Assembly: GCA_027484685.1 (NCBI GenBank)
Contig: JAIXSO010000066.1
Location: 785-64,784, forward strand
Reading direction: 5' to 3'
Length of the DNA stretch: 64,000 nt
Source of the DNA: Bacteroidota bacterium
Lineage (GTDB): Bacteria > Bacteroidota > Bacteroidia > UKL13-3
Part shown: piece by piece, positions 1,987 through 22,287 of the stretch
How positions within the stretch are numbered: the stretch's first letter is position 1
How the letters are laid out: each line of letters opens with the position of its first letter
Translations under genes and position numbers: made by a program
Notes under the pieces: model-generated
Seen by the model: the letters and a program-made list of their open reading frames with translations, nothing else
What the model was told of the DNA's origin: nothing
The model's database searches: none

Positions 1987-4479
1987 TTATGCCAACGATT
2001 CGTTAATGGCTCTAATCATCTTTTCTTGCAACTGTTCTGGCTCAAATGGTTTTAGAATATAATCGTTCATTCCGGCTGCATAGGCCGCATCGCGCATGGT
2101 ATTTTCGTTGGCAGCAGTTAAGGCTATAATGGGTACTTTTTTGTAATAACTATCGGCCAACGCTCTTATTTCGCGAGCACAGGTAATACCATCCATTTCG
2201 GGCATTTGCAAATCCATTAAAATTAAATCGTATTGGCTTTGTTTGGCTAACTCTAAACCCTTAACACCATTGTCGCCTACAACGGTGTTACAGCCCCATT
2301 TTTTTAGAAATTGTTTTAAAATAATTACGTTCACAAACGAATCTTCTACTACCAAAATGTTTTTTCCCTCTAAATTGGTAATAGTAGTTTTTTCAAAACT
2401 TAAATTATTAATATGTTTTGTTTCAACTATATCCAAACCAAGTTCAAATGAAAAAGTGCTTCCTTTACCCACTTCGGATTGTAACATAAGTTTACCACCC
2501 AAGCCTTCCACTATTTTTTGGCAAATAGATAATCCTAAACCTGCACCATCTTTTTTACGTGTGTTCGAAATATCAACTTGCGAAAAAGCTTCAAAAATAT
2601 CTGTTTGTTTTTCAATTGGAATACCCACTCCCGAATCAGAAACCTCAAACCTAACGGTTGATTTAAAAAAGCTAAAGTTGGTTTCTTTTATGCTCATTTT
2701 TACATAACCACTTTCGGTAAAATTAATGGCATTGGTAATAAGGTTTGATAATACTTGTGCTATGCGCAACGCATCCGATTTATAAGTATTTAGCTTATCT
2801 ACATCGCAATCTACAATAAATTCAAGGCCTTTATTTTTAACTTTTTCGGTAAAAATATCAACCAATCCATTTACCAATTGCTGCAATTTAAAATCGTTTT
2901 GGTTAAACTCATTATTACCACTTTCCAGGTTATTAAAGTCTAAAATATCGTTTACCAAATCAATTAACTTATGGGTTGATTGTTTTAAAATTACTAGGTT
3001 TTGAGCTTGTTCATCTCCCCCGTGGTTTTCCTTTATTAAATCGGCTATTCCATTGATGGCGTTTAGAGGCGTTCTAATTTCATGGCTGATATTTCTGATA
3101 AAACTAGCTTTGGCTTTTAATGCTTGCTTGGCCAACTCCTGCGATTTTAAAATTTGCTCATTTTGTTTTACCAAAGCATCGTTTTTAAGCGTAAGTTGTA
3201 TTTGATTATTTTTAAGTATAGCATTGGTTTTACGAATATTGTAAATGGTAAAAATTAAAAATAGCAAAATAGCCAACACCAATAAAATACCTGTAATAAT
3301 TAAGCCTGTAGTAATAGTTTTATTTTTACGCTTTTGCAGAGCCACTTCGGTTTCAGCTTCTTTTTGTTTAGCTAATGATTGCGATTGCAAGTCCTTTAAT
3401 TTTACCAAACTTTCGGCTGAACTAATGGCTTGCAAAACATTCATTTTTTGTTCGGTATAAATCAATGCATTTTTATAATCGTTTTGGGCTTTATAACAAT
3501 CAATATAAGTATCGTAAATGTTTACTTCAGCAACTTTATTATTGGTTTTTTTAGCTAAACTTTCGGCTTTGGCCAAAAAACTTATGGCTTTGGCGTATTG
3601 TTTATTTTTTATGTGCAAATCGGCCAAATCGGTAAACGAACTTCTAAGCCCATTTTCATCGTTAATTTTCTCTCTGATATCAAATGCTTTATTTAAATAA
3701 TTTTCAGCAATGCCCAATTGGTTTAAACCCAAATAACACATGCCAATATTATCGTAAGTTTCGGCTATATTTTTTAAGTTATTGCTTTTTAAATCATCTT
3801 CAAGCACCAATTCATATTTATCCAAAGCTTTGGCAAATTGTTTTCTTTCTAAATAAATAGATGCTAAATTATAGTGAATCAGGCTTAACTCAACATTCAG
3901 CTTTATGGCGATTGGCAAGGCTTGTAATAAAAATTTTTCAGCCAGAGTAAATTCTTTTTTTAAAAAATAAACCACTCCAATATTGTTCAACGATTTAAGA
4001 ACATAAGCCGAATCGTGTATTTGATTAGATAAATTTAATGCTTGAAAATAGTACCAAAGTGCCTTTGAGTAATTGGTTTTACTTTCATAAGAAATACCTA
4101 AATAATTATTACACCTAATTATTTTAGCGTTGTTATTGGTTTTAAAATAAAAAGTAATGGCATGTTGCAGGTAATAAATTGCCGAATCGAAATTACGGTT
4201 TTCGCAGTGGCCCACACCCAAACTTAAGTAAGAATCGTAAATGCCTTTTTCATAACTTACTTTTCTTGCAAGTTCAATTGATTTATGAGCATATTCAATG
4301 GCTTCGGAGCCATTTTCAACAAACAAAGTAAGGTTGTTGTTAAATAAATCTACCCTTTGCTGAACATTATTTTCGTTAGAAATGGCTTTTAAAACACTGT
4401 CTTTTTTAATCAAGTCGTTAGCTTGCACCGAAAAAATGGCACCTATTACAAAAAATAATATGTAAAGCTTTTTAACCAA
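1987..4479 (-). CDS. Hybrid sensor histidine kinase/response regulator with N-terminal TPR-repeat sensor domain
   Basis: 830 aa. Signal/TM, then about 350 aa of TPR-like repeats, then a TM helix (GLIITGILLVLAILLFLIF). H-box ISHEIRTPLNAI. HATPase G-boxes DSGVGI and GAGLGLSICQKIV. C-terminal receiver domain with ILVVEDS and the LILMDLQMPEMDG phospho-acceptor region. Apparent TTG start. Confidence 0.9.
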   Translation of the reverse strand: MVKKLYILFFVIGAIFSVQANDLIKKDSVLKAISNENNVQQRVDLFNNNLTLFVENGSEAIEYAHKSIELARKVSYEKGIYDSYLSLGVGHCENRNFDSAIYYLQHAITFYFKTNNNAKIIRCNNYLGISYESKTNYSKALWYYFQALNLSNQIHDSAYVLKSLNNIGVVYFLKKEFTLAEKFLLQALPIAIKLNVELSLIHYNLASIYLERKQFAKALDKYELVLEDDLKSNNLKNIAETYDNIGMCYLGLNQLGIAENYLNKAFDIREKINDENGLRSSFTDLADLHIKNKQYAKAISFLAKAESLAKKTNNKVAEVNIYDTYIDCYKAQNDYKNALIYTEQKMNVLQAISSAESLVKLKDLQSQSLAKQKEAETEVALQKRKNKTITTGLIITGILLVLAILLFLIFTIYNIRKTNAILKNNQIQLTLKNDALVKQNEQILKSQELAKQALKAKASFIRNISHEIRTPLNAINGIADLIKENHGGDEQAQNLVILKQSTHKLIDLVNDILDFNNLESGNNEFNQNDFKLQQLVNGLVDIFTEKVKNKGLEFIVDCDVDKLNTYKSDALRIAQVLSNLITNAINFTESGYVKMSIKETNFSFFKSTVRFEVSDSGVGIPIEKQTDIFEAFSQVDISNTRKKDGAGLGLSICQKIVEGLGGKLMLQSEVGKGSTFSFELGLDIVETKHINNLSFEKTTITNLEGKNILVVEDSFVNVIILKQFLKKWGCNTVVGDNGVKGLELAKQSQYDLILMDLQMPEMDGITCAREIRALADSYYKKVPIIALTAANENTMRDAAYAAGMNDYILKPFEPEQLQEKMIRAINESLA

Positions 4480-8986: not shown

Positions 8987-9097
8987 TTTCCTCTTCAAAC
9001 ATAAGAACAGAATTTTAGTTTTTTATAATAATATTACAAGTAGTTATTGTTTTAGTTCCGAAACCTTAGCTTCAAGCTAAGGTTTCGGTATTATGTT

Positions 9098-11614
9098 TTA
9101 ATTCTTCACCAATTTAAATGATGGACTATAACCACTATTACTTTCTAATCGAGCAAAATAAATACCTGAGTTGAGGTTGGTCATTTCATCAATGATGATG
9201 TTATTATTTCCAATATTGCTTTGAATAGTTTTAACAAAAACTTCTTTACCTACAGCATCTATAATCACCAATTTGGTATTTTCTTTTGTGTTGCTCATAA
9301 AATCAATTTCAATTTGGCTGCTAAATGGATTTGGTTTGATATTGATATTTGAAAAGGTATTTACATTAATAGGTTTTATAGATACAGGTGAATTAACAGT
9401 TAAAGTGAAATTTGTTGTGGTACTTCCTCCACTGTTTGAACCAGTAATGGTAAAAATAGTTTGAGCTATATTTACAGTTGGTGTTCCACTAATTAAACCA
9501 GTGGTAGTATTTAAACTTAAGCCATTTGGCAGCACAGGAATGATGCTAAAATTAGTAATTGAATCTCCTGAATAAGTTACTGAACTATTTATGTTGGTAA
9601 TGGTTCTAGTTGCAACAATACTTGAGTCATTGTATTTTAAATTATTAGGTGCAATGCTATTTACAGTTAACCTAAAACTAGCGGTTGTGCTTCCACCGTT
9701 ATTTGTTCCTGTAATTGTAAATGTTGTTTGTGGTAATGTTACCAATGGTATTCCACTTATCAAACCAGTCGAAGTATTTAAACTTAAACCTAAAGGTAAA
9801 CTTGGAGTAATACTAAAACTAGTAATTGAATCTCCTGAATATATTACTGAACTATTTATGTTGGTAATGGTTCTAGTTGCAACAATATTTGAGTCATTGT
9901 ATTTTAAATTACTAGGTGCAATGCTATTTACAGTTAACCTAAAACTAGCTGTTGTGCTTCCACCATTATTTGTTCCAGTAATTGTAAAAACAGTTTGTGG
10001 TATTGATACCTTTGGAATTCCACTAATTCTTCCTGTTGAGGTATTTAAACTAACGCCAGTTGGTAAACTTGGAGAAATACTAAAACTAGTTATTGAATCT
10101 CCTAAATAAGTTACAGAACTGTTTATATTAGTAATGGTTCTAGTTGCAATAACAATTGATGGAGAATAAATTAATGAACTTGGAGAAACAGATAACGCTT
10201 TAAAAGCATTAATTCTTCCATAGCCATAATATTGATCCCATCCTAAAGTATCTTCACTTAAGTTACCAACTCTATCTTTTGCGGTTCTTTCTATTATTGA
10301 TTTAATCTGTGCAGGTGTTCGGTTTGGATTTTGAGCTAATAACAAAGAAGCAAGACCTGATACTAGTGGTGTTGCTTGTGATGTTCCACCCCAATAAGAA
10401 TTATAATTGGTATTTGATTGATAATTTAAACCATAAATATAGTTACCAGGAGCAACAACAGAAATATGACTTCCATAATTACTTCCACTTGTTGAACTCC
10501 AAAAAAATGGGTTAGACCTTGTGTCATTTGAATTAGTTGAACCTACTGCAATAACACCTGTATATGCTGCTGGATAATAAACTGTATTTGAATTTGTATT
10601 CATCATACAGGCAACGATTATTACGTTATTATTTAAAGCATAAGTAACAGCATTTTGCAATGTAGTTGAAGTGCCTGTCCCGCCTAATGACATATTAATG
10701 ACATTTGCCCCATTATCTACTCCATAATAAATAGCATCGGCAAACCATGAATAATATCCTAAATTAGTATTATCAAGTCCTTTTAAAGTCATTAGTTTGC
10801 AATTCCAGTCTACACCAGCATAACCAATTGAATTATTTCCATTAGCCCCAATAATACCTACAACATTGGTTCCGTGTCCATGGTCATCAGAAGGATTATT
10901 GTCTGTATTTGCAAAATCCCACCCTTTCACGTCATCAACATATCCATTGCTGTCATCATCTAATCCATTACTAGGAATTTCATTATAATTTATCCAGATT
11001 CTATTTGTAAATTCGGGATGGTCTAATTTTGTTCCGCTATCTATGATACCAACAACTATATTGCTATCACCTTGCTCTATATTCCAAGCTTTTTCCATAT
11101 CAATATCAGCACCTGCAATAGAAGGCGATAAAGAAAATGTTCCATTATTTTTTAGTCCCCATTGTCTTAAATAGTGTTGGTCATTGGGAGTAACAGTTTC
11201 CCCTCCTCCTGAACCTTTATAGTCTGGTTCGGCATATTCAATTTCACCTGTATTGTAATATTCATCTATTACCTGCTGAACATTTGTTCCAATTGGAAAA
11301 GTAATAATAAAAATATGTTGTTTGTTTTTTTTTCCTATTGTTTGTTTTTTAATTTTAATAGGATTAAATTTTTGAGTAATGGAGTCAACTTTGTTGTTTC
11401 CAGTTATTTCGTGATTGTAAAGTGATTTGTTTAATAAAATTTTGCTTTTTAATTTTATTATGATTTGTTTTGTCTCTTCTGGTTTTTTTACTGACCAACT
11501 ATCAGGGTTAAAAGAGGTTATGGTGGGAGCTTGTGCAAAGACAGCTTTTCCAAACATTAGTAATACCATAACCATTAGTAGGTTATGAAATATTTTTTGT
11601 AAAGTATTTTTCAT
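9098..11614 (-). CDS. S8 family serine peptidase (subtilase) with three tandem Ig-like (He_PIG-type) repeats and a T9SS type A C-terminal sorting domain
   Basis: 838 aa with a signal peptide. Subtilase catalytic triad regions: DSGT (Asp), HGTNVVGII (His) and GTSQATPLVSGLASLL (Ser). There are three ~90-aa repeats with the motif LP.G(L/V)SLNT(S/T)TG.ISG(I/T)P. The C-terminal ~80 aa (KPNPFSSQIEIDF...GIYFARL...) resembles the Por secretion tail. Confidence 0.9.
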   Translation of the reverse strand: MKNTLQKIFHNLLMVMVLLMFGKAVFAQAPTITSFNPDSWSVKKPEETKQIIIKLKSKILLNKSLYNHEITGNNKVDSITQKFNPIKIKKQTIGKKNKQHIFIITFPIGTNVQQVIDEYYNTGEIEYAEPDYKGSGGGETVTPNDQHYLRQWGLKNNGTFSLSPSIAGADIDMEKAWNIEQGDSNIVVGIIDSGTKLDHPEFTNRIWINYNEIPSNGLDDDSNGYVDDVKGWDFANTDNNPSDDHGHGTNVVGIIGANGNNSIGYAGVDWNCKLMTLKGLDNTNLGYYSWFADAIYYGVDNGANVINMSLGGTGTSTTLQNAVTYALNNNVIIVACMMNTNSNTVYYPAAYTGVIAVGSTNSNDTRSNPFFWSSTSGSNYGSHISVVAPGNYIYGLNYQSNTNYNSYWGGTSQATPLVSGLASLLLAQNPNRTPAQIKSIIERTAKDRVGNLSEDTLGWDQYYGYGRINAFKALSVSPSSLIYSPSIVIATRTITNINSSVTYLGDSITSFSISPSLPTGVSLNTSTGRISGIPKVSIPQTVFTITGTNNGGSTTASFRLTVNSIAPSNLKYNDSNIVATRTITNINSSVIYSGDSITSFSITPSLPLGLSLNTSTGLISGIPLVTLPQTTFTITGTNNGGSTTASFRLTVNSIAPNNLKYNDSSIVATRTITNINSSVTYSGDSITNFSIIPVLPNGLSLNTTTGLISGTPTVNIAQTIFTITGSNSGGSTTTNFTLTVNSPVSIKPINVNTFSNINIKPNPFSSQIEIDFMSNTKENTKLVIIDAVGKEVFVKTIQSNIGNNNIIIDEMTNLNSGIYFARLESNSGYSPSFKLVKN
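9270..10150. repeat. Three tandem ~270-bp coding repeats (two nearly identical at the DNA level) inside the subtilase gene
   Basis: Units begin near 9270, 9541 and 9811. The second and third units are about 95% identical over 270 bp. The spurious plus-strand ORF 9591..10109 with an internal protein duplication is an artefact of this repeat. Confidence 0.9.
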
Positions 11615-11762
11615 AATTTTTGTTGAGGCGAAAATATATTAATTTATTTTAAAAATTAAAATTTCTTGTGAATAATTAATTTTTATATCGTTTACTTAAC
11701 TAATTCTATTCTTTCCACTTCTTTCACATCCATTTCATTTTCTTTCTTTCTTCTTGTTCACA

Positions 11763-11820
11763 GAAGGCTTCTAGCTATCTCAGGAAGCATTATTTTTATT
11801 CAAGGAAGGCTTCCAGCTAT
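11763..11820. promoter_or_regulatory. Pair of 16-bp direct repeats (gaaggcttcYagctat) with 42-bp spacing, upstream of the subtilase gene
   Basis: Repeat copies lie at 11763-11778 and 11805-11820 with one mismatch. They are 150-200 bp upstream of the minus-strand start at 11614. The 4-helical-turn spacing is typical of response-regulator direct-repeat sites. Confidence 0.3.
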
Positions 11821-12246
11821 ATATTTTGATGTTATTTATACATAAAACGGTTTTTTTAAATGCTAAAAGTGTGGATGTATATAAACAAAATCTAAATGGC
11901 TGAAAATAGAATTTTATACTTTTTAAAATAATAATTCTTTAGGTATTTGGTTAGACCATAAACAGGAGCATTAGTAATGCTTATGGAAAAAGTCATGCAG
12001 TGCATCTCCTTAATTTGGCAACCAACACTCCGTTAGCTATGCTGGTTGCGAAGGAAAGAGGATTCCTGCGGAATGACTTTTATTTTTATTATGCGTTATC
12101 CAGCGTATATCTTTGGTATGGTAACCGTTGTAACTTCCTTGCATTTTTTAATAAAGTAGACACTATCATAAAAATAATTGATTAGGCATAGCTATGCTTT
12201 GCATATTTTTTACATTTTTGCACCATTAAAACTAAAATACAAAAGT

Positions 12247-13790: not shown

Positions 13791-15311
13791 ATGCCTATCG
13801 TAAACTCATTAGTAAGCTGGTACTTAAAAAAACGGGTTCCGTTTATTGATAGGATAATGCTTGAACCACATGCCGTTCAAGAAGAACAACTTACTAAACT
13901 GCTGCGCCATGCAGAGCTAACTTACTTTGGAAGTAAAGCCAATTTTAGTAAAATTAGAAATTACGAAGACTTTAAAAAACAAGTTCCAGTAACCAATTAC
14001 GATGGGTTTAAACCTTATATCGATCAAATATTGCAAGGCAAACAAAATGTAGTTTGGCCAAGCGATACCAGGTGGTTTGCCAAATCATCGGGAACTACCA
14101 GCGATAAAAGTAAATTTATTCCTGTTACTCACGAAAGTTTAGATGAATGCCATTTTCAAGGTGGTAAAGATGCTTTGCTGTTTTATTTGCTTCAAAATAC
14201 TGATAGTAATCTGTTTGATGGTAAAGGTTTAGTAGTTGGTGGAAGCAATAATGTAAACAAACTGAACGATGAAAGTTTTTATGGCGATTTATCGGCAGTT
14301 ATGATGCAAAACATGCCTTTTTGGGCTCAATATTTACGCACGCCTGAGTTGGCTATTGCGCTTATGAATAATTGGGACGAAAAAGTAGAAAAAATGGCCA
14401 AAGCTACTTTAAACGAAAATGTTACCAATATGTCGGGGGTGCCCACTTGGACAGCTGTTTTAATTGAAAAACTGTATGAACTAACAGGCAAAAATTGCCT
14501 TACCGATATTTGGCCAAATATGGAGCTTTATATTCATGGTGGTGTAAGTTTTACACCTTACCGCGAACGTTTTAGGCGTTTAATCAAATCGAACCAAGTA
14601 AATTATTTAGAAACTTACAATGCTTCGGAAGGATTTTTTGGTATTCAAGACGATTTAAACCGAGATGATATGTTGCTCATGTTGGATTATGGTGTGTTTT
14701 ACGAGTTTATGCCTATGAGCGAATATGGCAAAGAAAACCCAAAAACACTGAGCATAGGCGAGGTACAAACAGACGAAAATTATGCTTTGGTTATTAGTAC
14801 CAATGCTGGCCTTTGGCGATACATAGTTGGCGATACCATTAAGTTTACCTCAACCAAACCTTACAGGTTTAAAATAACTGGCCGAACCAAACATTTTATT
14901 AATGCATTTGGCGAGGAATTAATGATTGAAAATGCGGATAACGCCATTAGCAGAGCTTGCAAAAATTTGGGTGCGCACATAGTTGATTATACCGCTGCAC
15001 CCATTTATATTGATGAAAACCAAAAAGGTGGACACGAATGGTTAATTGAGTTTGATAAAATGCCAGAAAATTTGGAGCAGTTTACCATTTACTTAGATAA
15101 TTATTTAAAAGAAAACAACAGCGATTACGAAGCCAAACGTTACAAAGACATGGCTATGTTATTGCCTAAAATACACGCTTTGCCTAGAGGCACTTTTAGC
15201 AATTGGCTTAAAAATAAACAAAAACTAGGTGGTCAGCATAAAGTACCGCGCCTAAGCAATAACCGCGATATTTTAGAAGAAATTTTAGGAACAATGAGTT
15301 TGGCGGGTTAA
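13791..15311 (+). CDS. GH3-family (auxin-responsive promoter family) adenylate-forming protein
   Basis: About 507 aa. The GH3 N-terminal region and adenylation motifs SSGTTSDKSKFIP and the YNASEGFFG region are present. This family is common in Bacteroidota. The start was set to the ATG at 13791. Confidence 0.85.
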   Translation: MPIVNSLVSWYLKKRVPFIDRIMLEPHAVQEEQLTKLLRHAELTYFGSKANFSKIRNYEDFKKQVPVTNYDGFKPYIDQILQGKQNVVWPSDTRWFAKSSGTTSDKSKFIPVTHESLDECHFQGGKDALLFYLLQNTDSNLFDGKGLVVGGSNNVNKLNDESFYGDLSAVMMQNMPFWAQYLRTPELAIALMNNWDEKVEKMAKATLNENVTNMSGVPTWTAVLIEKLYELTGKNCLTDIWPNMELYIHGGVSFTPYRERFRRLIKSNQVNYLETYNASEGFFGIQDDLNRDDMLLMLDYGVFYEFMPMSEYGKENPKTLSIGEVQTDENYALVISTNAGLWRYIVGDTIKFTSTKPYRFKITGRTKHFINAFGEELMIENADNAISRACKNLGAHIVDYTAAPIYIDENQKGGHEWLIEFDKMPENLEQFTIYLDNYLKENNSDYEAKRYKDMAMLLPKIHALPRGTFSNWLKNKQKLGGQHKVPRLSNNRDILEEILGTMSLAG

Positions 15312-15396
15312 AAGATGACAAGGTTGGAAAGATTACAAAGATTGGAAAATTAGTTGAGCTTATTGTCTACTTCGCCTAGGATTACACGCATTTCAC

Positions 15397-15429
15397 TTAC
15401 TTCGCATTTTTGTCACTTCGCATTCCGCA
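15397..15429. repeat. 33-bp perfect direct repeat, copy A (ttacttcgcatttttgtcacttcgcattccgca)
   Basis: Identical to 16213-16245. A partial extra copy of 'tacttcgc' lies at 15369-15376. It is 14 bp from the stop of the 15443..16198 gene. Confidence 0.9.
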
Positions 15430-15442
15430 TTTCAAAAATCCA

Positions 15443-16198
15443 TTACTTATTTTTCAACTCAATATTGAATTTATCTTTAAGGTATTTATTACAATCACCT
15501 CTTAAAAATTTATAACTTATATTGTAGGGTTCTTGATTGGGGAAATCAGTCGAAATATCTCCAATTCCTTTTAAATAACAAATTTTACCTGAACCAAAGC
15601 TGCAACCATCAACCCATACAAACTGGTTGGTTATAGAATCATTCCATGACTCGGCAAACCCAATTTTACTTAAATTAGTTGAGATTAAATCAATTGACTT
15701 GTAAACTCCTTTATAACGAAATTTATTACTATTAAAGCAATTGCACATGATGCCATTTACTTTTTCTTGTTCCTCAAATTTAAATTTTTCGGCAAATAAA
15801 AAGGAATCATTAAAACCACTTTCCTTACCTAAATAAAACACAATTAAACTATCGAATTTATTCATTTTTTTGTTTGGTAAAACCAACAAATTTTCTTTAA
15901 TAAATTTTTGTGTTATACCTTCTTTGGTAACCAAATATTGCTTTATTCTGCCAAACTTGTAATTAATTGGATTAAGAAAATAATCAATTGATTTGCTTGC
16001 TCTCAAAAAACTGAAAAGAGAATCTCTGATGATTCTTCCATCAATAATTGTTAGTAAGGAATCATGATGATAAGTTCTTATAGTGGCATATTCATAATTA
16101 CCTTCAATTAATTCACATTGACAGGTGTCGTTTTTTTGAGCTGTTAGACTTAGTCCAATCAAAAAATGAAATATAATAAACAACACAATCTTTTTCAT
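15443..16198 (-). CDS. Hypothetical secreted protein (251 aa), AT-rich
   Basis: ATG start and an N-terminal signal peptide (MKKIVLFIIFHFLIGLSLTAQ). Several Cys pairs. No recognisable family. It is precisely bracketed by the 33-bp direct repeats. Confidence 0.6.
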   Translation of the reverse strand: MKKIVLFIIFHFLIGLSLTAQKNDTCQCELIEGNYEYATIRTYHHDSLLTIIDGRIIRDSLFSFLRASKSIDYFLNPINYKFGRIKQYLVTKEGITQKFIKENLLVLPNKKMNKFDSLIVFYLGKESGFNDSFLFAEKFKFEEQEKVNGIMCNCFNSNKFRYKGVYKSIDLISTNLSKIGFAESWNDSITNQFVWVDGCSFGSGKICYLKGIGDISTDFPNQEPYNISYKFLRGDCNKYLKDKFNIELKNK

Positions 16199-16212
16199 TC
16201 AACATTCAAAAT

Positions 16213-16245
16213 TTACTTCGCATTTTTGTCACTTCGCATTCCGCA
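16213..16245. repeat. 33-bp perfect direct repeat, copy B
   Basis: Identical to 15397-15429. It is 15 bp upstream of the start of the 15443..16198 gene and just 3' of the DEAD-box helicase stop. Confidence 0.9.
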
Positions 16246-16253
16246 GTTAATAG

Positions 16254-17600
16254 TTACTTATTCTTCCTCTTCATAGCTCTATTGCGTTCTACAGCGCGGT
16301 TTCTTGGCTTTGTTTTATTAGGGTTTCTGCGTCTAGGGCCTCCTAAATTTTCTTTCGTGTTTTTAGCTTTCTTTTCGTGAAACGATGGATTGGCGTTTTT
16401 ATTTTTCTTTATTTTTAAATAATTCTTTGCACCTACTTCAGGTTTTTCGTCAGCGGCAAAAACCGTTGAAATTACCACTTCCTTTGGCATTTCTACCAAC
16501 GGAATTTCCATTTTCATTAATGTTTCAATATTGTATTTATATTCTTCTTCTACCTCGTTTACAAAAGTTATTGCCAAACCATCTTTGCCTGCGCGGCCTG
16601 TTCTACCAATTCTATGCAAATAATCTCCAGGTGTATCAGGCGTATCAAAGTTTATTACATGGCTTACATCCACTATATCCAATCCCCTTGCAGCTATATC
16701 AGTAGCTATTAAAATACGGAATTTACCCTCCTGAAACTTTTTTAAAGTAGCAAACCTCACCGTTTGCGATTTAGCAGAATGAATAACCATTACCTCATCT
16801 GTAAACTTGGTAACCATTTGCTCAAATAACCTATCGGCCATTTTTATACTCTTTACAAAAACCATTACTTTATTGATACTTTCGTTTTGGTTCAATAAAT
16901 GCTCTAATAAATTAACCTTGGTATTGTAGTTTGGCACCAAATAAGCCGATTGACCAATTTGAGCTAAAGGCGTTCCATGAGCTGCTATTTCTATTTTTTT
17001 AGGATTGGTAAAAAAAGTATGAATCAATTTTTCCACCTCGGGAGTCATGGTAGCCGAAAACAAAATATTTTGGTGTTTTGGCATCAAATCTAAAATGGTG
17101 GTAAGCTGTGCTCTAAAACCTTGGTCAAGCATTTCATCTACCTCATCTATTACCAATTGTTGAGCTAACTTTAATTTTAAATGACCAATTCCAGCCAAAT
17201 CAATTAAGCGGCCCGGAGTTGAAACCAAAATATCTAATCCATCAAAAACCAATTGGCGCTGCGGGTTGATATTAGCACCACCATAAATACCACCATAACG
17301 AACAGTAATGTATTTGCTCAGTTTTTCAATTTCTTGTACCACCTGTAATACCAACTCGCGCGTTGGAACTAAAATAATAGCTCTTGGATGTTTTTCGTGG
17401 CTAAATTTCATTTGCCTTAAAATAGGCAATAAATAAGCAAAGGTTTTACCTGTTCCAGTTTGGGCCACACCTATTACATCGCTACCAGACATGATTACCG
17501 GAAAAGCTTGTTCTTGAATAGGTGTTGGGTGTATATATTCTAAATCGCTTAAGGCATTAAGCAAAGGAGCATTTAAATTTAAATCTTCGAAGTTTAGCAT
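16254..17600 (-). CDS. DEAD-box ATP-dependent RNA helicase with basic C-terminal tail
   Basis: Q-motif, Walker A AQTGTGKT, motif Ia PTRELV, DEVD (DEAD-box variant), SAT, and motif VI HRIGRTGRAG. The C-terminal tail is Arg/Lys-rich. Confidence 0.95.
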   Translation of the reverse strand: MLNFEDLNLNAPLLNALSDLEYIHPTPIQEQAFPVIMSGSDVIGVAQTGTGKTFAYLLPILRQMKFSHEKHPRAIILVPTRELVLQVVQEIEKLSKYITVRYGGIYGGANINPQRQLVFDGLDILVSTPGRLIDLAGIGHLKLKLAQQLVIDEVDEMLDQGFRAQLTTILDLMPKHQNILFSATMTPEVEKLIHTFFTNPKKIEIAAHGTPLAQIGQSAYLVPNYNTKVNLLEHLLNQNESINKVMVFVKSIKMADRLFEQMVTKFTDEVMVIHSAKSQTVRFATLKKFQEGKFRILIATDIAARGLDIVDVSHVINFDTPDTPGDYLHRIGRTGRAGKDGLAITFVNEVEEEYKYNIETLMKMEIPLVEMPKEVVISTVFAADEKPEVGAKNYLKIKKNKNANPSFHEKKAKNTKENLGGPRRRNPNKTKPRNRAVERNRAMKRKNK

Positions 17601-18020
17601 GTTGTAAGTATGTAACTGTTTTTCAGTTATTTATAATTAATTGTTTTATAAATAGTTATTTATAAATTACTGCAAATTAAGCCTAAAAGCCTTACAATAG
17701 CTAAATGAAAATTTTTGGTTGTTCGTTGTCCGTTTTTCGTTGCTCTTTGCTTTGCTTATCTTTTATTAATTTTAACCACATAGAACATAGAAAAATAGTT
17801 TTCAGGTTTGTTTTTCATGCTTGGTGTTTCATTTATCGTGCATTGCCCATCAACTATTTATTTATGCCCGAGCTTGAAGTCATCACTAATCCACCTTTCA
17901 ATTGGAGAGAACAACCGAGAACAAATATCATCTAAAATTGATGTGATATCACCTAGATAATTACCAATACCTAAAGGTAAATCATTGGGGGATATTAATT
18001 TGGTTATGCTTTAATAGTTA

Positions 18021-19883
18021 TTAGTCATTTAAATAATATGGAATTGATTCTTTAAAGTCATGAAGTATTTTTATTCTTTTTTTTGAGGTAAACAGTCTTA
18101 CTACTCTAGTTTCGGCTTTATTTTTTTTAATAAATTCTTTTTGAAAAAAATTATAGTTGGACTTATTGCTCTCATAGTAATTTGATGGAATTTCTACCAC
18201 TTTAATAACATTAAGTTTTTTTGCATTTTTTAAATTTAAATGTGCCAATGAATAGTGGTCGAAAGAGCAATAGTTTATTTTTCTGAGTATTTTTCTTGGA
18301 GTATTCTGTATTATATAATTTACATCACTATTGATAAATAGCACTCTTAACTCATCGCTTTTTAATTCATGTATATTGTTTAAATTTTTCCCTTTAGTAG
18401 CAGCTAAAGTATTTGAATCAATAAAATTTATAATAATAGTATTTATATTTTTCCTTTTTATTAAACTTAATGGTAAAAGGGAGTCTTTTGATAATAAAAT
18501 ATCATTGCCATTGGCCAAATAGTTTTCATATTCAAACGAATCAGGTTTTTGATATAATTCTCGGTAGTATTCTTGCTCTGATTTTTTTTTTGTAATTCCA
18601 TACTCAATGTCAGTAATAATTTGATAATCTGTTTTTGGAACTAAATAGAAATAATGAGTTGCTTTTTCTTCTTTACGAATAATTTTATTTTGCATTAACA
18701 AATAAAATTCTTGGTCTGAAAAATTAATTGTATCAGTTTTATAGTATACGGTACATACTAAGCAAGGTAAATTATACCAACATTTTTCATTATAAATTTT
18801 ATAGTCATAAACCCCATAATTGTATGTATCAAAGTATAAGTCAACATCAAATTCATTTACTATCCGACATCTATAATTTAGTTTAGCCTTATTTAAAATA
18901 TTTCCAAAATACTTTATTTGGCCATATATGTTATATTCTTCACATTTTAAGTTAGATGGTAAGCTGTCGAAACATAAATCTAGAATATCCATTTTTTTTA
19001 TGTTCAAGTATTCAAGACCTTTTGGTAAGTTTTTAAAACCTTCTACCTTTAATTTAAATTCTTCAAATGGAACTTTGTTTTGTTTAAAACAGGAATCAAA
19101 TGAAATAGGCATAGGTATTAAACTATCTAAATAAAAATTTTGGCTAGTTAGTTCTAAAATATCTTTACAATCTACTTTTTTATTCTTTTTAGGGTATATA
19201 AAATCAGAGTATTTATTTAATATAGAGGTATCAACTATTTTAAAACCATTCGCCATTTCAATATATATTTTGGTTAAGTTTTTAAAGCCTTTGAAATGGT
19301 ATTTAAAAGGATGGTCTGCATAAATATTAATTGTAGATACATTACTATTACTAACCATATCAAGTATTTGGGTTGCTAAAATATCGCATTGTGGTATTGA
19401 ATTGGTATCTTTAAAATCGCTTAAATTACCAGTGTATTTTGTTACGTATAAATCTAAATAACTTAAATTAGATATGTCAAAGTTGTAGATGGTCGACCAT
19501 ATAGAAGCTATTTCTTTTGGGATTTCTAATTTTCGCTTTCTAAAATATGCTAAAGTGTCTGTAATAGAATCAGCAACCATTCTAGGTTTTTTAAATCCTA
19601 ATCTTTCTTCTATTTCAACTTGTCTAAATCTACTCCAATTAGTAAAAGTATCTTTAGTAAATGTGTAAAACTCTGAAGTAATTCTTTTATCAAGTAAAAA
19701 TTCAGAAGTGTCAAACGCCATTGTACGTATTATTAAAGTAGAAATATCATTGTTATAGCCAAGCTTAAATAACTTTTTATATTCTAAGAAGTTACTATTA
19801 GGAATAGGTCTGTTAATTACATCTTGTCCATTGGTATTTAAGTATATAATAGTGTAAATAAGTATGGTTAAATATTTTTTCAT
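18021..19883 (-). CDS. Hypothetical secreted protein (620 aa), very AT-rich, possible leucine-rich-repeat-like segments
   Basis: ATG start and a signal peptide (MKKYLTILIYTIIYLNTNGQ). Strongly A/T-skewed codon usage relative to its neighbours. It contains LxxLxL-like segments (LEYLNIKKMDILDLCFDSLPSNLK). There are no enzymatic motifs. Confidence 0.55.
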   Translation of the reverse strand: MKKYLTILIYTIIYLNTNGQDVINRPIPNSNFLEYKKLFKLGYNNDISTLIIRTMAFDTSEFLLDKRITSEFYTFTKDTFTNWSRFRQVEIEERLGFKKPRMVADSITDTLAYFRKRKLEIPKEIASIWSTIYNFDISNLSYLDLYVTKYTGNLSDFKDTNSIPQCDILATQILDMVSNSNVSTINIYADHPFKYHFKGFKNLTKIYIEMANGFKIVDTSILNKYSDFIYPKKNKKVDCKDILELTSQNFYLDSLIPMPISFDSCFKQNKVPFEEFKLKVEGFKNLPKGLEYLNIKKMDILDLCFDSLPSNLKCEEYNIYGQIKYFGNILNKAKLNYRCRIVNEFDVDLYFDTYNYGVYDYKIYNEKCWYNLPCLVCTVYYKTDTINFSDQEFYLLMQNKIIRKEEKATHYFYLVPKTDYQIITDIEYGITKKKSEQEYYRELYQKPDSFEYENYLANGNDILLSKDSLLPLSLIKRKNINTIIINFIDSNTLAATKGKNLNNIHELKSDELRVLFINSDVNYIIQNTPRKILRKINYCSFDHYSLAHLNLKNAKKLNVIKVVEIPSNYYESNKSNYNFFQKEFIKKNKAETRVVRLFTSKKRIKILHDFKESIPYYLND

Positions 19884-19986
19884 TCTAGTTTATAACTAAG
19901 TTTACCTCAAATTAACGTGAAAAAGTTTAAATATATTCACTCATAAAATATAAAGCAATATAAGTTATTTGGATAAATTTTAAAAA

Positions 19987-20100
19987 ATGGCGGGACGCCT
20001 ATCAAACTCACACTCGCAAGATGCGAGCGAGTGCGAAGGGGTGTGAGATTGCTTCGTATCCGATAGCTATCGGACTCGCAATGACGTTATTATTGTATAT
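19987..20100. other. GC-rich, highly structured ~110-nt element in an AT-rich spacer (candidate ncRNA, 5' leader or terminator complex)
   Basis: Nested hairpins: ggcg/gga/cgcc; then ctcacac-tcgca-agatgcgagcgag-tgcga-agggg-gtgtgag; then the perfect 16-bp palindrome tccgatagctatcgga. The actcgcaa motif is repeated. It lies between the 3' end of the FG-GAP gene and the 5' end of the 620-aa gene. Confidence 0.35.
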
Positions 20101-20160
20101 CGTTTTATAATTTATCATTCCTACGGTCTATCAACTATGGTCTATCGTCTATCAACTAAC

Positions 20161-21966
20161 TTACTCTTTCACCAATTTTTTTACCAACACGCCCATTTCT
20201 GTTTGAACATGTATTTGATACAAACCTTGTGGTAAATGGCTTATATTTATTTCGTCTGTTCGGCTATTGGGTTCTTGTTGTAACAATTGTTTACCAGTTA
20301 TATCAAAAACCAAAATGCTTTGCATGCTAACAGGGCTTTGTATTTGTACCAAACCGCTAGTTGGGTTAGGGAAAATGCTAATTGCTGCGCTGTTTTTTGT
20401 TAAATTATTAATGCCTACAGTTTGTATATTTATATAACTGCTGCGTAATAATGAATCTGAATTAAAAGGATTGGTAACTTTAAGCTGCACGCTGTAATTA
20501 GCCGTTTGATTAAACTTGACAATGGGGTTAGCACTGGTATCTGAAGTACCGTTTTGGTAAGTAAAAGTATTGGGTGTAATGCTCCATTTATAAGTACTAG
20601 AAAAACCGGTACTGTATTGGGTAAAGTTAAACACCGTATTTTGGTTACCACTGGTGGTATTAACCCGCCACAAAGCTTTAGGTGGGGTAGGGTGAACAGC
20701 ACCATCTAGGCTTAGTAAGTAAATGGCGCCTTTGTCTGTGCCGCCATCGTCTGTACCAAATGCTCCAACAATCAAATCATTTTTAAAATCGCCATCTAAA
20801 TCAAAACCACCCGATAAGCCAGAACCAAAGTAATCGCCATCTTTTAATACTCCTGAAAAATTTAATGAATTATTATCAATACGTTTTATTGATTTAACAG
20901 TTCCATTACTATTTAAAAACAAAATGCGTACTCTTCCAGTATTAATACTATTTACATTATCAGTTACTGATGAAACAGCTAAATCTGGAATTGAATCATT
21001 GTCTAAGTCACCTAAATTTGTAATATTACTACCAAATAATTCCCCACTTTTGATTGTGTCAGTGTAATTTCCAGAATCAGAATCAATCTTTTGAAATGCT
21101 TTAACTTTAGCGGAACTATCTAACATTAAAACCCATAAAGGTTCAAAAGAACCAACAATTAAATCTTCAATTTTATCTTTGTTTATATCTCCTGCATTTA
21201 CAAGAGTTTTACCAAATAATGCACCCCCACTAAGAACCCCTTTGAAATTCCCATTTGTACTACTAATTTTTTGTGTTTTTTTAATTACAAGCTGTTTATC
21301 TAAAAAAATAATATAAACAATTCCATAGTAACCACCCCCATCATTATTACCTGTTGACCCAACAACAATTTCATTTAAATTATCACCATCAATATCTTTA
21401 AGTGATGCTACTGATGACCCAAAATATTCATCGTTGTTTAGGACAAAGTCATTTGAACCTAAAATTTTATATGATTTTACCATACCTTGTTCTGTCAGCA
21501 TTAATATATAAATTTCCCCTTTACTGTTGCCTCCACCTGAACTATTTCCTACAATAATATCATTTATGCCATCGTCATTTAAATCTCCAAGAGTTGATAT
21601 TGATTGGCCAAAACTTTGCATTGAATTGTTAAAAGTGCCATTAAGCCCTCCGATATTAGGACCAATCCTTGTAAAAGATTTTACTGTTTGATTTTTATTT
21701 ATAAAAAGTATAAATATATTTCCCGTCTGATTAGCTATATCATAGGCGGATACAGCTAAATCTGCTATCCCATCTTTGTCTATATCACCTATATTTATAA
21801 TACAAGTTCCAAGTCTCTGAAGATTTGAACTCATGCCTGAAAACATCCCGCTTGTAGAACTAATTTTAGAATATTTATTTATATTATAATTTTGACTATA
21901 GATTTTGGTGATACATATAAATATCACAGCTAAAATTAATATACTTTTTTTTATATTTGACATCAT
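20161..21966 (-). CDS. FG-GAP/VCBS repeat-containing secreted protein with T9SS type A C-terminal sorting domain
   Basis: 601 aa with a signal peptide. Repeated DxDGDG/DLNDDGINDIIVG integrin-alpha FG-GAP-like calcium-binding motifs are followed by a PKD-like segment. The Por-secretion-tail-like C-terminus is AISIFPNPTSGLVQIQ...LPQGLYQIHVQ. Confidence 0.8.
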   Translation of the reverse strand: MMSNIKKSILILAVIFICITKIYSQNYNINKYSKISSTSGMFSGMSSNLQRLGTCIINIGDIDKDGIADLAVSAYDIANQTGNIFILFINKNQTVKSFTRIGPNIGGLNGTFNNSMQSFGQSISTLGDLNDDGINDIIVGNSSGGGNSKGEIYILMLTEQGMVKSYKILGSNDFVLNNDEYFGSSVASLKDIDGDNLNEIVVGSTGNNDGGGYYGIVYIIFLDKQLVIKKTQKISSTNGNFKGVLSGGALFGKTLVNAGDINKDKIEDLIVGSFEPLWVLMLDSSAKVKAFQKIDSDSGNYTDTIKSGELFGSNITNLGDLDNDSIPDLAVSSVTDNVNSINTGRVRILFLNSNGTVKSIKRIDNNSLNFSGVLKDGDYFGSGLSGGFDLDGDFKNDLIVGAFGTDDGGTDKGAIYLLSLDGAVHPTPPKALWRVNTTSGNQNTVFNFTQYSTGFSSTYKWSITPNTFTYQNGTSDTSANPIVKFNQTANYSVQLKVTNPFNSDSLLRSSYINIQTVGINNLTKNSAAISIFPNPTSGLVQIQSPVSMQSILVFDITGKQLLQQEPNSRTDEINISHLPQGLYQIHVQTEMGVLVKKLVKE

Positions 21967-22287
21967 AATTAAATCAACATATCGTTAGAATGAATAAATA
22001 TTCTTGAAGGTTTTTGATATACGGCATAAGCCATATCAAGAAACAATTATAACCAAACATTTAGGTTTTTAAAAACCATTTAAACAAAAAATAATTGGTT
22101 TTATATCCATCCTATTTTTAAATGGCTTTTGAGTTGGGTTAGGTAACTTGGTTAGTTAATGGCAAAAAACCTAATAAATATTAACTATTTAAGGCTTAGT
22201 AAAATTTACACTAGCAAAAACGCTACAAAAAATTATTTTTGCTCGATTTATAATCACTAATAAAAACAAAAAACACTCTAAAATCCT

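Follow-up and report, generated by a model that had tools for sequence, protein, structure and literature searches.

Among the described systems with which the present locus may be compared, insertion with long target duplication comes first; it was reportedly also treated by Nobusato et al. in 2000. In the cases described by Furuta, Abe and Kobayashi (2010; PMC2853133), direct repeats of more than 30 bp lie on both sides of an insert that has no mobility genes, and the uninterrupted site has a single copy of the repeat. The cases in H. influenzae have 46-bp repeats at the 3′ ends of genes and an insert with lower GC (PMC2853133). Known cases of this class carry restriction-modification genes, and the DNA breakage that these cause is regarded as contributing to the mechanism. 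Campbell-type or 'ends-in' integration via short dispersed repeats likewise gives the order repeat-insert-repeat, with identical direct copies and one copy at the empty site, and a dedicated recombinase is unnecessary for it. Other systems to be considered are integron cassettes (attI/attC), whose distinct attC sites form an imperfect palindrome (R''-L''/L'-R') and have only core sites in common; attL/attR integrative elements, which encode a tyrosine or serine recombinase and for which a tRNA gene is often the target; Xer/dif modules (IMEX, pdif), with a 28-bp site made of inverted 11-bp arms and a 6-bp centre; and the REP/BIME and MITE families of short dispersed intergenic repeats.

The window, by which we mean the whole 64-kb stretch of DNA that was analysed, contains a single gene lying between two perfect 33-bp direct repeats in the spacer that separates a GH3-family gene from a DEAD-box RNA helicase gene. 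We refer to the bracketed gene as the cargo gene. The features of the locus are as follows, L030 (GCA_964529175.1, 735 kb; the contig of P0003) and the Logan contigs L031-L033 being sequences of relatives.

13791..15311, plus strand: GH3-family gene; a conserved flank, convergent with the cargo gene; homology to L030 ends at 15298.
15366..15396, minus strand: degenerate run-on of ACTTCGC and of the 16-nt array beside the GH3-side repeat copy, with ACTTCGC at 15369-15375; native spacer that aligns to the empty site of L030.
15397..15429, minus strand: GH3-side 33-bp copy, 13 nt past the stop codon of the cargo gene.
15430..16212, minus strand: inserted unique segment of 783 bp, GC 27.1%, missing from L030-L033.
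15443..16198, minus strand: cargo gene of 251 aa, with a signal-peptide-like N-terminus and six invariant Cys.
16213..16245, minus strand: helicase-side 33-bp copy, 8 nt past the helicase stop and 14 nt before the ATG of the cargo gene; its right flank is homologous to L030.
16254..17600, minus strand: DEAD-box RNA helicase gene; a conserved flank; homology to L030 resumes at 16226, inside the repeat.

The 33-mer TTACTTCGCATTTTTGTCACTTCGCATTCCGCA occurs with 0 mismatches at 15397-15429 and 16213-16245; on the sense strand, which is that of the cargo gene, it reads TGCGGAATGCGAAGTGACAAAAATGCGAAGTAA. The initial annotation had described perfect 33-bp repeats bracketing one gene, and its coordinates were right. 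The gaps that it gave, 14 bp past the stop and 15 bp before the start, were each one too large, the actual distances being 13 nt and 14 nt. When up to three mismatches were allowed, no further copy of the 33-mer was found in the 64-kb window, nor did the 33-mer match in any of the dinucleotide shuffles (0/100). According to the repeat finder, the pair grows to 36 nt if one mismatch is accepted. Inside the unit, where a duplication had been noticed previously, the 9-mer ACTTCGCAT is present twice in each 33-bp copy, 16 nt apart. In the window, exact ACTTCGCAT is confined to the two 33-bp copies, and at up to one mismatch the 9-mer is not enriched (11 matches versus 11.1 expected). An array of 16-nt period was reported by TRF at 15387-15424, slightly overrunning the GH3-side copy; this copy is embedded in a longer, decayed array of the same period. 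It may be noted that a separate tandem motif of 17-18 nt, AAAGATTACAAGATTGG, lies just past the GH3 stop (window 15311-15352), and that in L030 (11560-11600) a small hairpin, tcccgataaatcggga, is flanked by the same 'agattacaa' motif.

The cargo ORF (15443..16198) is the sole ORF between the two copies. It starts with ATG, and its hydrophobic N-terminus resembles a signal peptide. The GC content of the 783-bp segment, 27.1%, compares with 36-37% in the flanking genes and falls in the lowest 4.7% of 783-bp windows; likewise, GC3 is 23% in the insert versus 30-33% in the flanking genes. The cargo protein showed no match in Pfam, NCBIfam, PHROGs or PADLOC, and in a word-indexed search of 5.8 billion proteins it matched itself alone. 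When 1.84 billion representative proteins were searched exhaustively with phmmer, seven homologues of 29-34% identity were obtained. All of them are about 250 aa long, with an N-terminal signal-like segment, and they have six invariant cysteines in common. Judged by these sequences, the cargo gene belongs to a genuine but rare family, and the proteins of this family are probably secreted. AlphaFold models of the cargo protein were poor (pLDDT 35 with the single sequence, 58.6 with an 8-sequence alignment), and neither Foldseek against the PDB nor a profile search of PDB sequences produced a credible match. The locus of the nearest homologue (P0122, at L041) is not flanked by the 33-nt element. 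The element was not found in viral contigs, phages or plasmids, and viral contigs contained no relative of the cargo protein family; a phage, plasmid or viral origin was rejected on these grounds.

Relatives of the locus were gathered via homologues of the GH3 protein, and they form a graded series. In L030 and in the Logan contigs L031-L033, the GH3 gene adjoins the convergent helicase gene directly; the spacer between them is 164 bp long, has no ORF and contains one diverged copy of the element. By BLASTN, L030 matched the window at about 92-94% nucleotide identity in four blocks. The homology stopped at window position 15298 and restarted at 16226, within the helicase-side repeat. When 816 bp were taken out of the window so that one repeat copy was left, the remainder aligned to the L030 spacer. 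Beside the helicase gene this spacer reads, in the sense direction, TAAttaaaGAATGCGAAGT[tCGAAGT]GACAA[tcacgcaaggcgtga]GCGAAGTGAA, and its copy of the element has been changed by a tandem duplication of 7 nt and a palindromic insertion of 15 nt. The spacer of L030-L033 is a single-copy empty site, from another species-level lineage (~92% identity). The initial annotation had proposed a cassette inserted by duplication or recombination, and a comparison of related genomes in which its absence would leave a single copy of the repeat. The cassette proposal is supported by L030-L033, relatives of another species-level lineage in which the GH3 and helicase genes adjoin with one diverged copy and no gene between them. 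Excision of the gene as a circle, also proposed there, would be possible in principle.

More distant relatives have other genes beside GH3. In L043, where the helicase has 97% amino acid identity, the DNA past the stop codon (3317-3540) is unrelated and has no element; a 249-aa lipoprotein-like ORF and an ECF sigma factor are the neighbours of this helicase. The DNA downstream of the helicase gene differs among three relatives, and the stretch is a hot spot of rearrangement. With the gene neighbourhood changing in this way among the more distant relatives, no outgroup gives a polarity to the event. Since the insert is atypical in composition and its gene is rare, a gain is inferred rather than a loss.

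When 185,579 species genomes were scanned with the pattern ACTTCGCAT-N7-ACTTCGCAT, 27 hits were obtained, of which about 17 were estimated to occur by chance. True relatives of the element among the 27 were L012 and L019 alone, both Bacteroidia MAGs with one strict match each. A 28-nt core, GGAATGCGAAGTGACAAAAATGCGAAGT, is common to the window, L012 and L019, and a metagenome scan with the 22-nt centre added one further contig, L029, in which the core is identical as well. In L012 and L029 the element lies 4 nt past the RlmN stop codon. In L019 it lies 4 nt past a lipoprotein gene, in the spacer between convergent genes; L019 and L029 agree over 42 nt at 95% identity, the stop codon included. 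When a profile of the copies was run with nhmmer, three degenerate copies were found in L038/L039 (3455-3640), two direct and one inverted, between the stop codon of an ABC ATPase gene and a MacB/FtsX permease gene. L038 and L039 are relatives selected through GH3 and not for the element. The inverted pair of L038 folds as a long hairpin (-31.6 kcal/mol, z = -4.5), and one of the L038/L039 copies holds a 17-nt insertion flanked by GGAAT repeats.

In 5/5 independent loci, the element is positioned 1-13 nt past a stop codon in the sense orientation. Family copies from other species match the 33-mer at 28-31 of 33 positions, and the differences are in the 5′ part. The ends of the direct repeat in the window fall within 0-3 nt of where the family similarity begins and ends. 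As a rough tally, about 115 kb of non-redundant lineage DNA that was unselected for the element contained two loci with it. The duplicated sequence has two copies in the window and the same core at other loci in other genomes, and the 33-mer is a member of a sparse intergenic repeat family of low-GC Bacteroidia. The suggestion of a small intergenic repeat family made earlier holds in so far as core or degenerate copies are present at unrelated loci in L012, L019, L029 and L038. The family is sparse, though, and not one of hundreds of copies, with none else in the window and one strict match in each of two species genomes among the 185,579.

Seven Bacteroidota hits of the pattern scan were rejected as family members. 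In these (L004, L007, L008, L009, L010, L018 and L023), the dyad ATGCGAAGT-N7-ATGCGAAGT falls in coding DNA and is a false positive: it encodes the C-terminus ...YPGQIKVTVIREMRSVAYAK (IREMRSVAYAK) of a conserved protein, probably RNase Y. Most of the other hits were rejected as unrelated single matches at about chance level.

We favour, with belief and doubt about evenly balanced, the reading that the gene was acquired horizontally and was integrated by recombination at a resident copy of the sparse intergenic repeat family. The ancestral GH3-helicase spacer would have contained one short element, about 33-40 nt long, rich in purines and unstructured, with the pattern TGCGGA-ATGCGAAGT-N7-ATGCGAAGT-AA. 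Foreign DNA of lower GC, 783 bp in length and with one secreted-protein gene, would have integrated at this resident element. The likeliest route may be a homologous 'ends-in' or Campbell-type exchange between the resident copy and an identical copy beside the incoming gene, the incoming molecule being either circular, or linear and ending in the element. The outcome would be a gene between two identical copies of the element. The two copies may now be mainly a scar that permits precise loss via recombination between the repeats.

The main argument for whole-element recombination is that the ends of the repeat match the ends of the element, as is expected if whole elements recombined. The order repeat-insert-repeat, the identical direct copies and the one copy at the empty site agree with Campbell-type integration, which would not call for the recombinase that the insert lacks. 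The form of the donor in such a homology-driven mechanism would be as supposed above, and the homology here is 33 bp long, which is near the lower limit for RecA-type recombination. In other species the family copies diverge in the 5′ part, so that an incoming element matching at all 33 nt would have had to come from a very close or an intragenomic donor. The perfect identity of the two copies is explained more simply by a target duplication than by element recombination. Other points against element recombination are that L012 and L029 have no second copy, that L041 has no element, and that the L030 copy carries two indels. On balance, we rank whole-element recombination first, as a call that could go either way, and insertion with long target duplication second, as a possible but rather unlikely alternative.

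According to this second explanation, element-free foreign DNA would have been joined to the ends left by staggered or resected breaks, some 33 nt from one another, and the target would have been duplicated by fill-in. The membership of the target in a repeat family would then be incidental, or would reflect fragility of the sequence. The locus shows what Furuta and co-workers used as criteria for this class (PMC2853133): repeats longer than 30 bp (33 perfect, 36 with one mismatch) that immediately flank the insert, a small insert free of mobility genes, and an uninterrupted single-copy site in a related genome (~92% identity). The lower GC of the insert and its position at the 3′ end of a gene make the H. 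influenzae cases close parallels (PMC2853133). Identity of the two copies follows automatically from such a duplication. Moreover, native sequence continues from each of the copies, namely the 16-nt array from the GH3-side one and helicase-proximal sequence from the helicase-side one. Against this, both ends lie within 0-3 nt of the element ends, which is improbable for arbitrary breaks in a spacer of 130-190 nt; the duplicated stretch is exactly one element of a dispersed family and not unique DNA. The cargo also differs, being a secreted-type protein with no PADLOC match in place of a restriction-modification system.

A third explanation, which we regard as improbable, is that the element is a functional 3′-end module, either an RNA signal or a protein-binding signal, of which each gene has its own. 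The window would then simply have two co-directional genes with one module each, and gene conversion would keep the copies identical. The sense position just past a stop codon at all five independent loci speaks for a module of this kind, as does the identity of the core across species at non-orthologous loci. The structural data, however, were negative. Spacers that bear the element folded worse than their shuffles (z-scores +1.6 to +2.4). No terminator-like site, that is a GC-rich hairpin followed by a U tract, and no stable fold was found in 15200-16400. The best Rfam 15 hits scored 16-20 bits (E > 1), in each case well short of the gathering threshold. An identity as an RNA element was rejected on the Rfam result, the absent terminator and the absent structure, and for the same reasons the earlier proposal of terminators or paired regulatory elements is not supported. 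Matches resembling sigma-70 promoters were weak and about as frequent as in shuffles (9 versus a mean of 5.1, sd 2.2). The Bacteroidetes promoter motif is TAnnTTTG, and no exact occurrence was seen on inspection by eye.

In addition, constraint at a given locus is weak, as indicated by the decay of the orthologous L030 copy (7-nt and 15-nt indels) and by the absence of the element from L043, and this weighs against a functional module. The element accompanies just two of roughly 50 genes in the window. A module would also fail to explain why the sole two copies in 64 kb flank the one inserted gene.

The unit is a direct dyad without inverted symmetry and without terminal inverted repeats. The lack of inverted symmetry argues against attC, dif/Xer and typical recombinase core sites, and against REP and MITE sequences as well. 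With the REP/BIME and MITE families, the element shares its short dispersed intergenic nature, its location at gene 3′ ends, its occurrence in single, tandem or inverted form (L038) and the decay of older copies by indels. It differs in that its unit is non-palindromic, that it is consistently in the sense orientation relative to the upstream gene, and that few copies of it seem to exist (none besides the two in 64 kb). The locus differs from Xer/dif modules in having no dyad symmetry where these have inverted arms.

We consider it still less probable that the element serves as the attachment site of a recombinase or integrase whose gene lies elsewhere in the genome, and at which single-gene cassettes come and go in an integron-like manner or through cuts at the borders as at a CRISPR repeat. 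Several observations would fit an attachment site: the duplication comprises the whole element, three direct TGCGRA motifs within it are candidate protein-binding sites, and the DNA past the helicase gene varies among the relatives. At the RlmN locus, the element forms the edge of a fully divergent segment, since L012 and L029 (~94% nucleotide identity) carry unrelated DNA past RlmN and the element. On the reverse strand of L012, positions 2394-3076 of this DNA contain one 217-aa secreted/membrane ORF, and positions 2240-5365 of L029 contain five small ORFs. The homology of the two resumes at CCTACATCCCCTTA. Neither variable segment ends in a second copy of the element, which counts against an attachment site.

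The search for mobility functions was also negative. Based on the annotation of relatives and on the neighbour genes, there is no gene for an integrase, transposase or recombinase over about 15 kb to each side. No recombinase is encoded inside the 783-bp insert, the sole product of which is the 251-aa secreted-type protein, and the window has no tRNA gene; in these respects the locus differs from attL/attR integrative elements. Like an integron cassette, the insert consists of one gene, about 0.8 kb long and with very little non-coding DNA at its edges, that is placed between site-like repeats and co-directional with the upstream gene. It differs from a cassette in the absence of intI within about 15 kb, in the absence of a foldable, attC-like palindrome, and in having two identical 33-mers.

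Comparison with L030 revealed two more low-GC segments specific to the window, 9030-12141 and 17715-22165. Both were checked for bracketing direct repeats, and neither has them, which is a further point against an attachment site. The absence of copies from viral contigs, phages and plasmids, the element-free locus of the nearest cargo homologue (L041), and the finding of a single bracketed gene in all the data examined weigh in the same direction. As regards their content, 9030-12141 includes an ORF (9098..11614, minus strand) for an 838-aa T9SS-sorted subtilase, which has three 267-nt tandem repeats (9392-10159) corresponding to He_PIG Ig-like domains. The segment 17715-22165 includes a 620-aa ORF of 24.7% GC without Pfam match and a 601-aa FG-GAP protein with a T9SS sorting domain. 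In this lineage, strain-specific DNA seems to be made up of genes for secreted proteins that were dropped into spacers.

A bolder form of the same idea, which we find more doubtful again, would make the stop-proximal 33-nt element a dedicated integration site of these Bacteroidia. A remote enzyme would either cut at both borders, as Cas1-Cas2 does at the CRISPR repeat, or recombine copies, so that single accessory genes for secreted proteins are inserted and the element is duplicated. The result would be an integron-like cassette system with a distant recombinase.

The last explanation, an assembly artefact, bears on the Logan contigs of SRR16126889. One of these (L042) arrives from the GH3 side and another (L001) from the helicase side, and each ends 30 nt into the repeat, as is the behaviour of a k=31 graph at an exact 33-bp repeat. 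Had GH3-element-helicase been the only arrangement in the sample, the one contig would have run on into the other; the reads must therefore contain the repeat in a second context. That a repeated k-mer caused the 783-bp segment to be looped into the contig is hardly credible: the source is probably a metagenome-assembled genome, the Logan contigs break at the repeat from both sides and no independent contig with the ORF is on record, but the 33-bp repeat is shorter than the reads and than the final k of common assemblers, and the ORF is intact with the conserved signature of its family.

Returning to whole-element recombination as the preferred reading, the event is a clean but fairly ordinary footprint of gene gain, of a kind that is already known. 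It provides a natural example of a lone accessory gene without mobility functions entering a bacterial chromosome, for which both the filled and the empty sites are known, and the duplicated sequence is a complete unit of a short dispersed repeat. The presence of two perfect repeats predicts that the gene can be lost precisely and reversibly. If the pattern does not recur, the locus would be a Bacteroidota case, without restriction-modification genes, of the poorly understood class of insertions with long target duplication. If it recurs genome-wide, such elements would act as landing pads and thereby help to determine which secreted proteins make up the accessory secretome of uncultured Bacteroidia.
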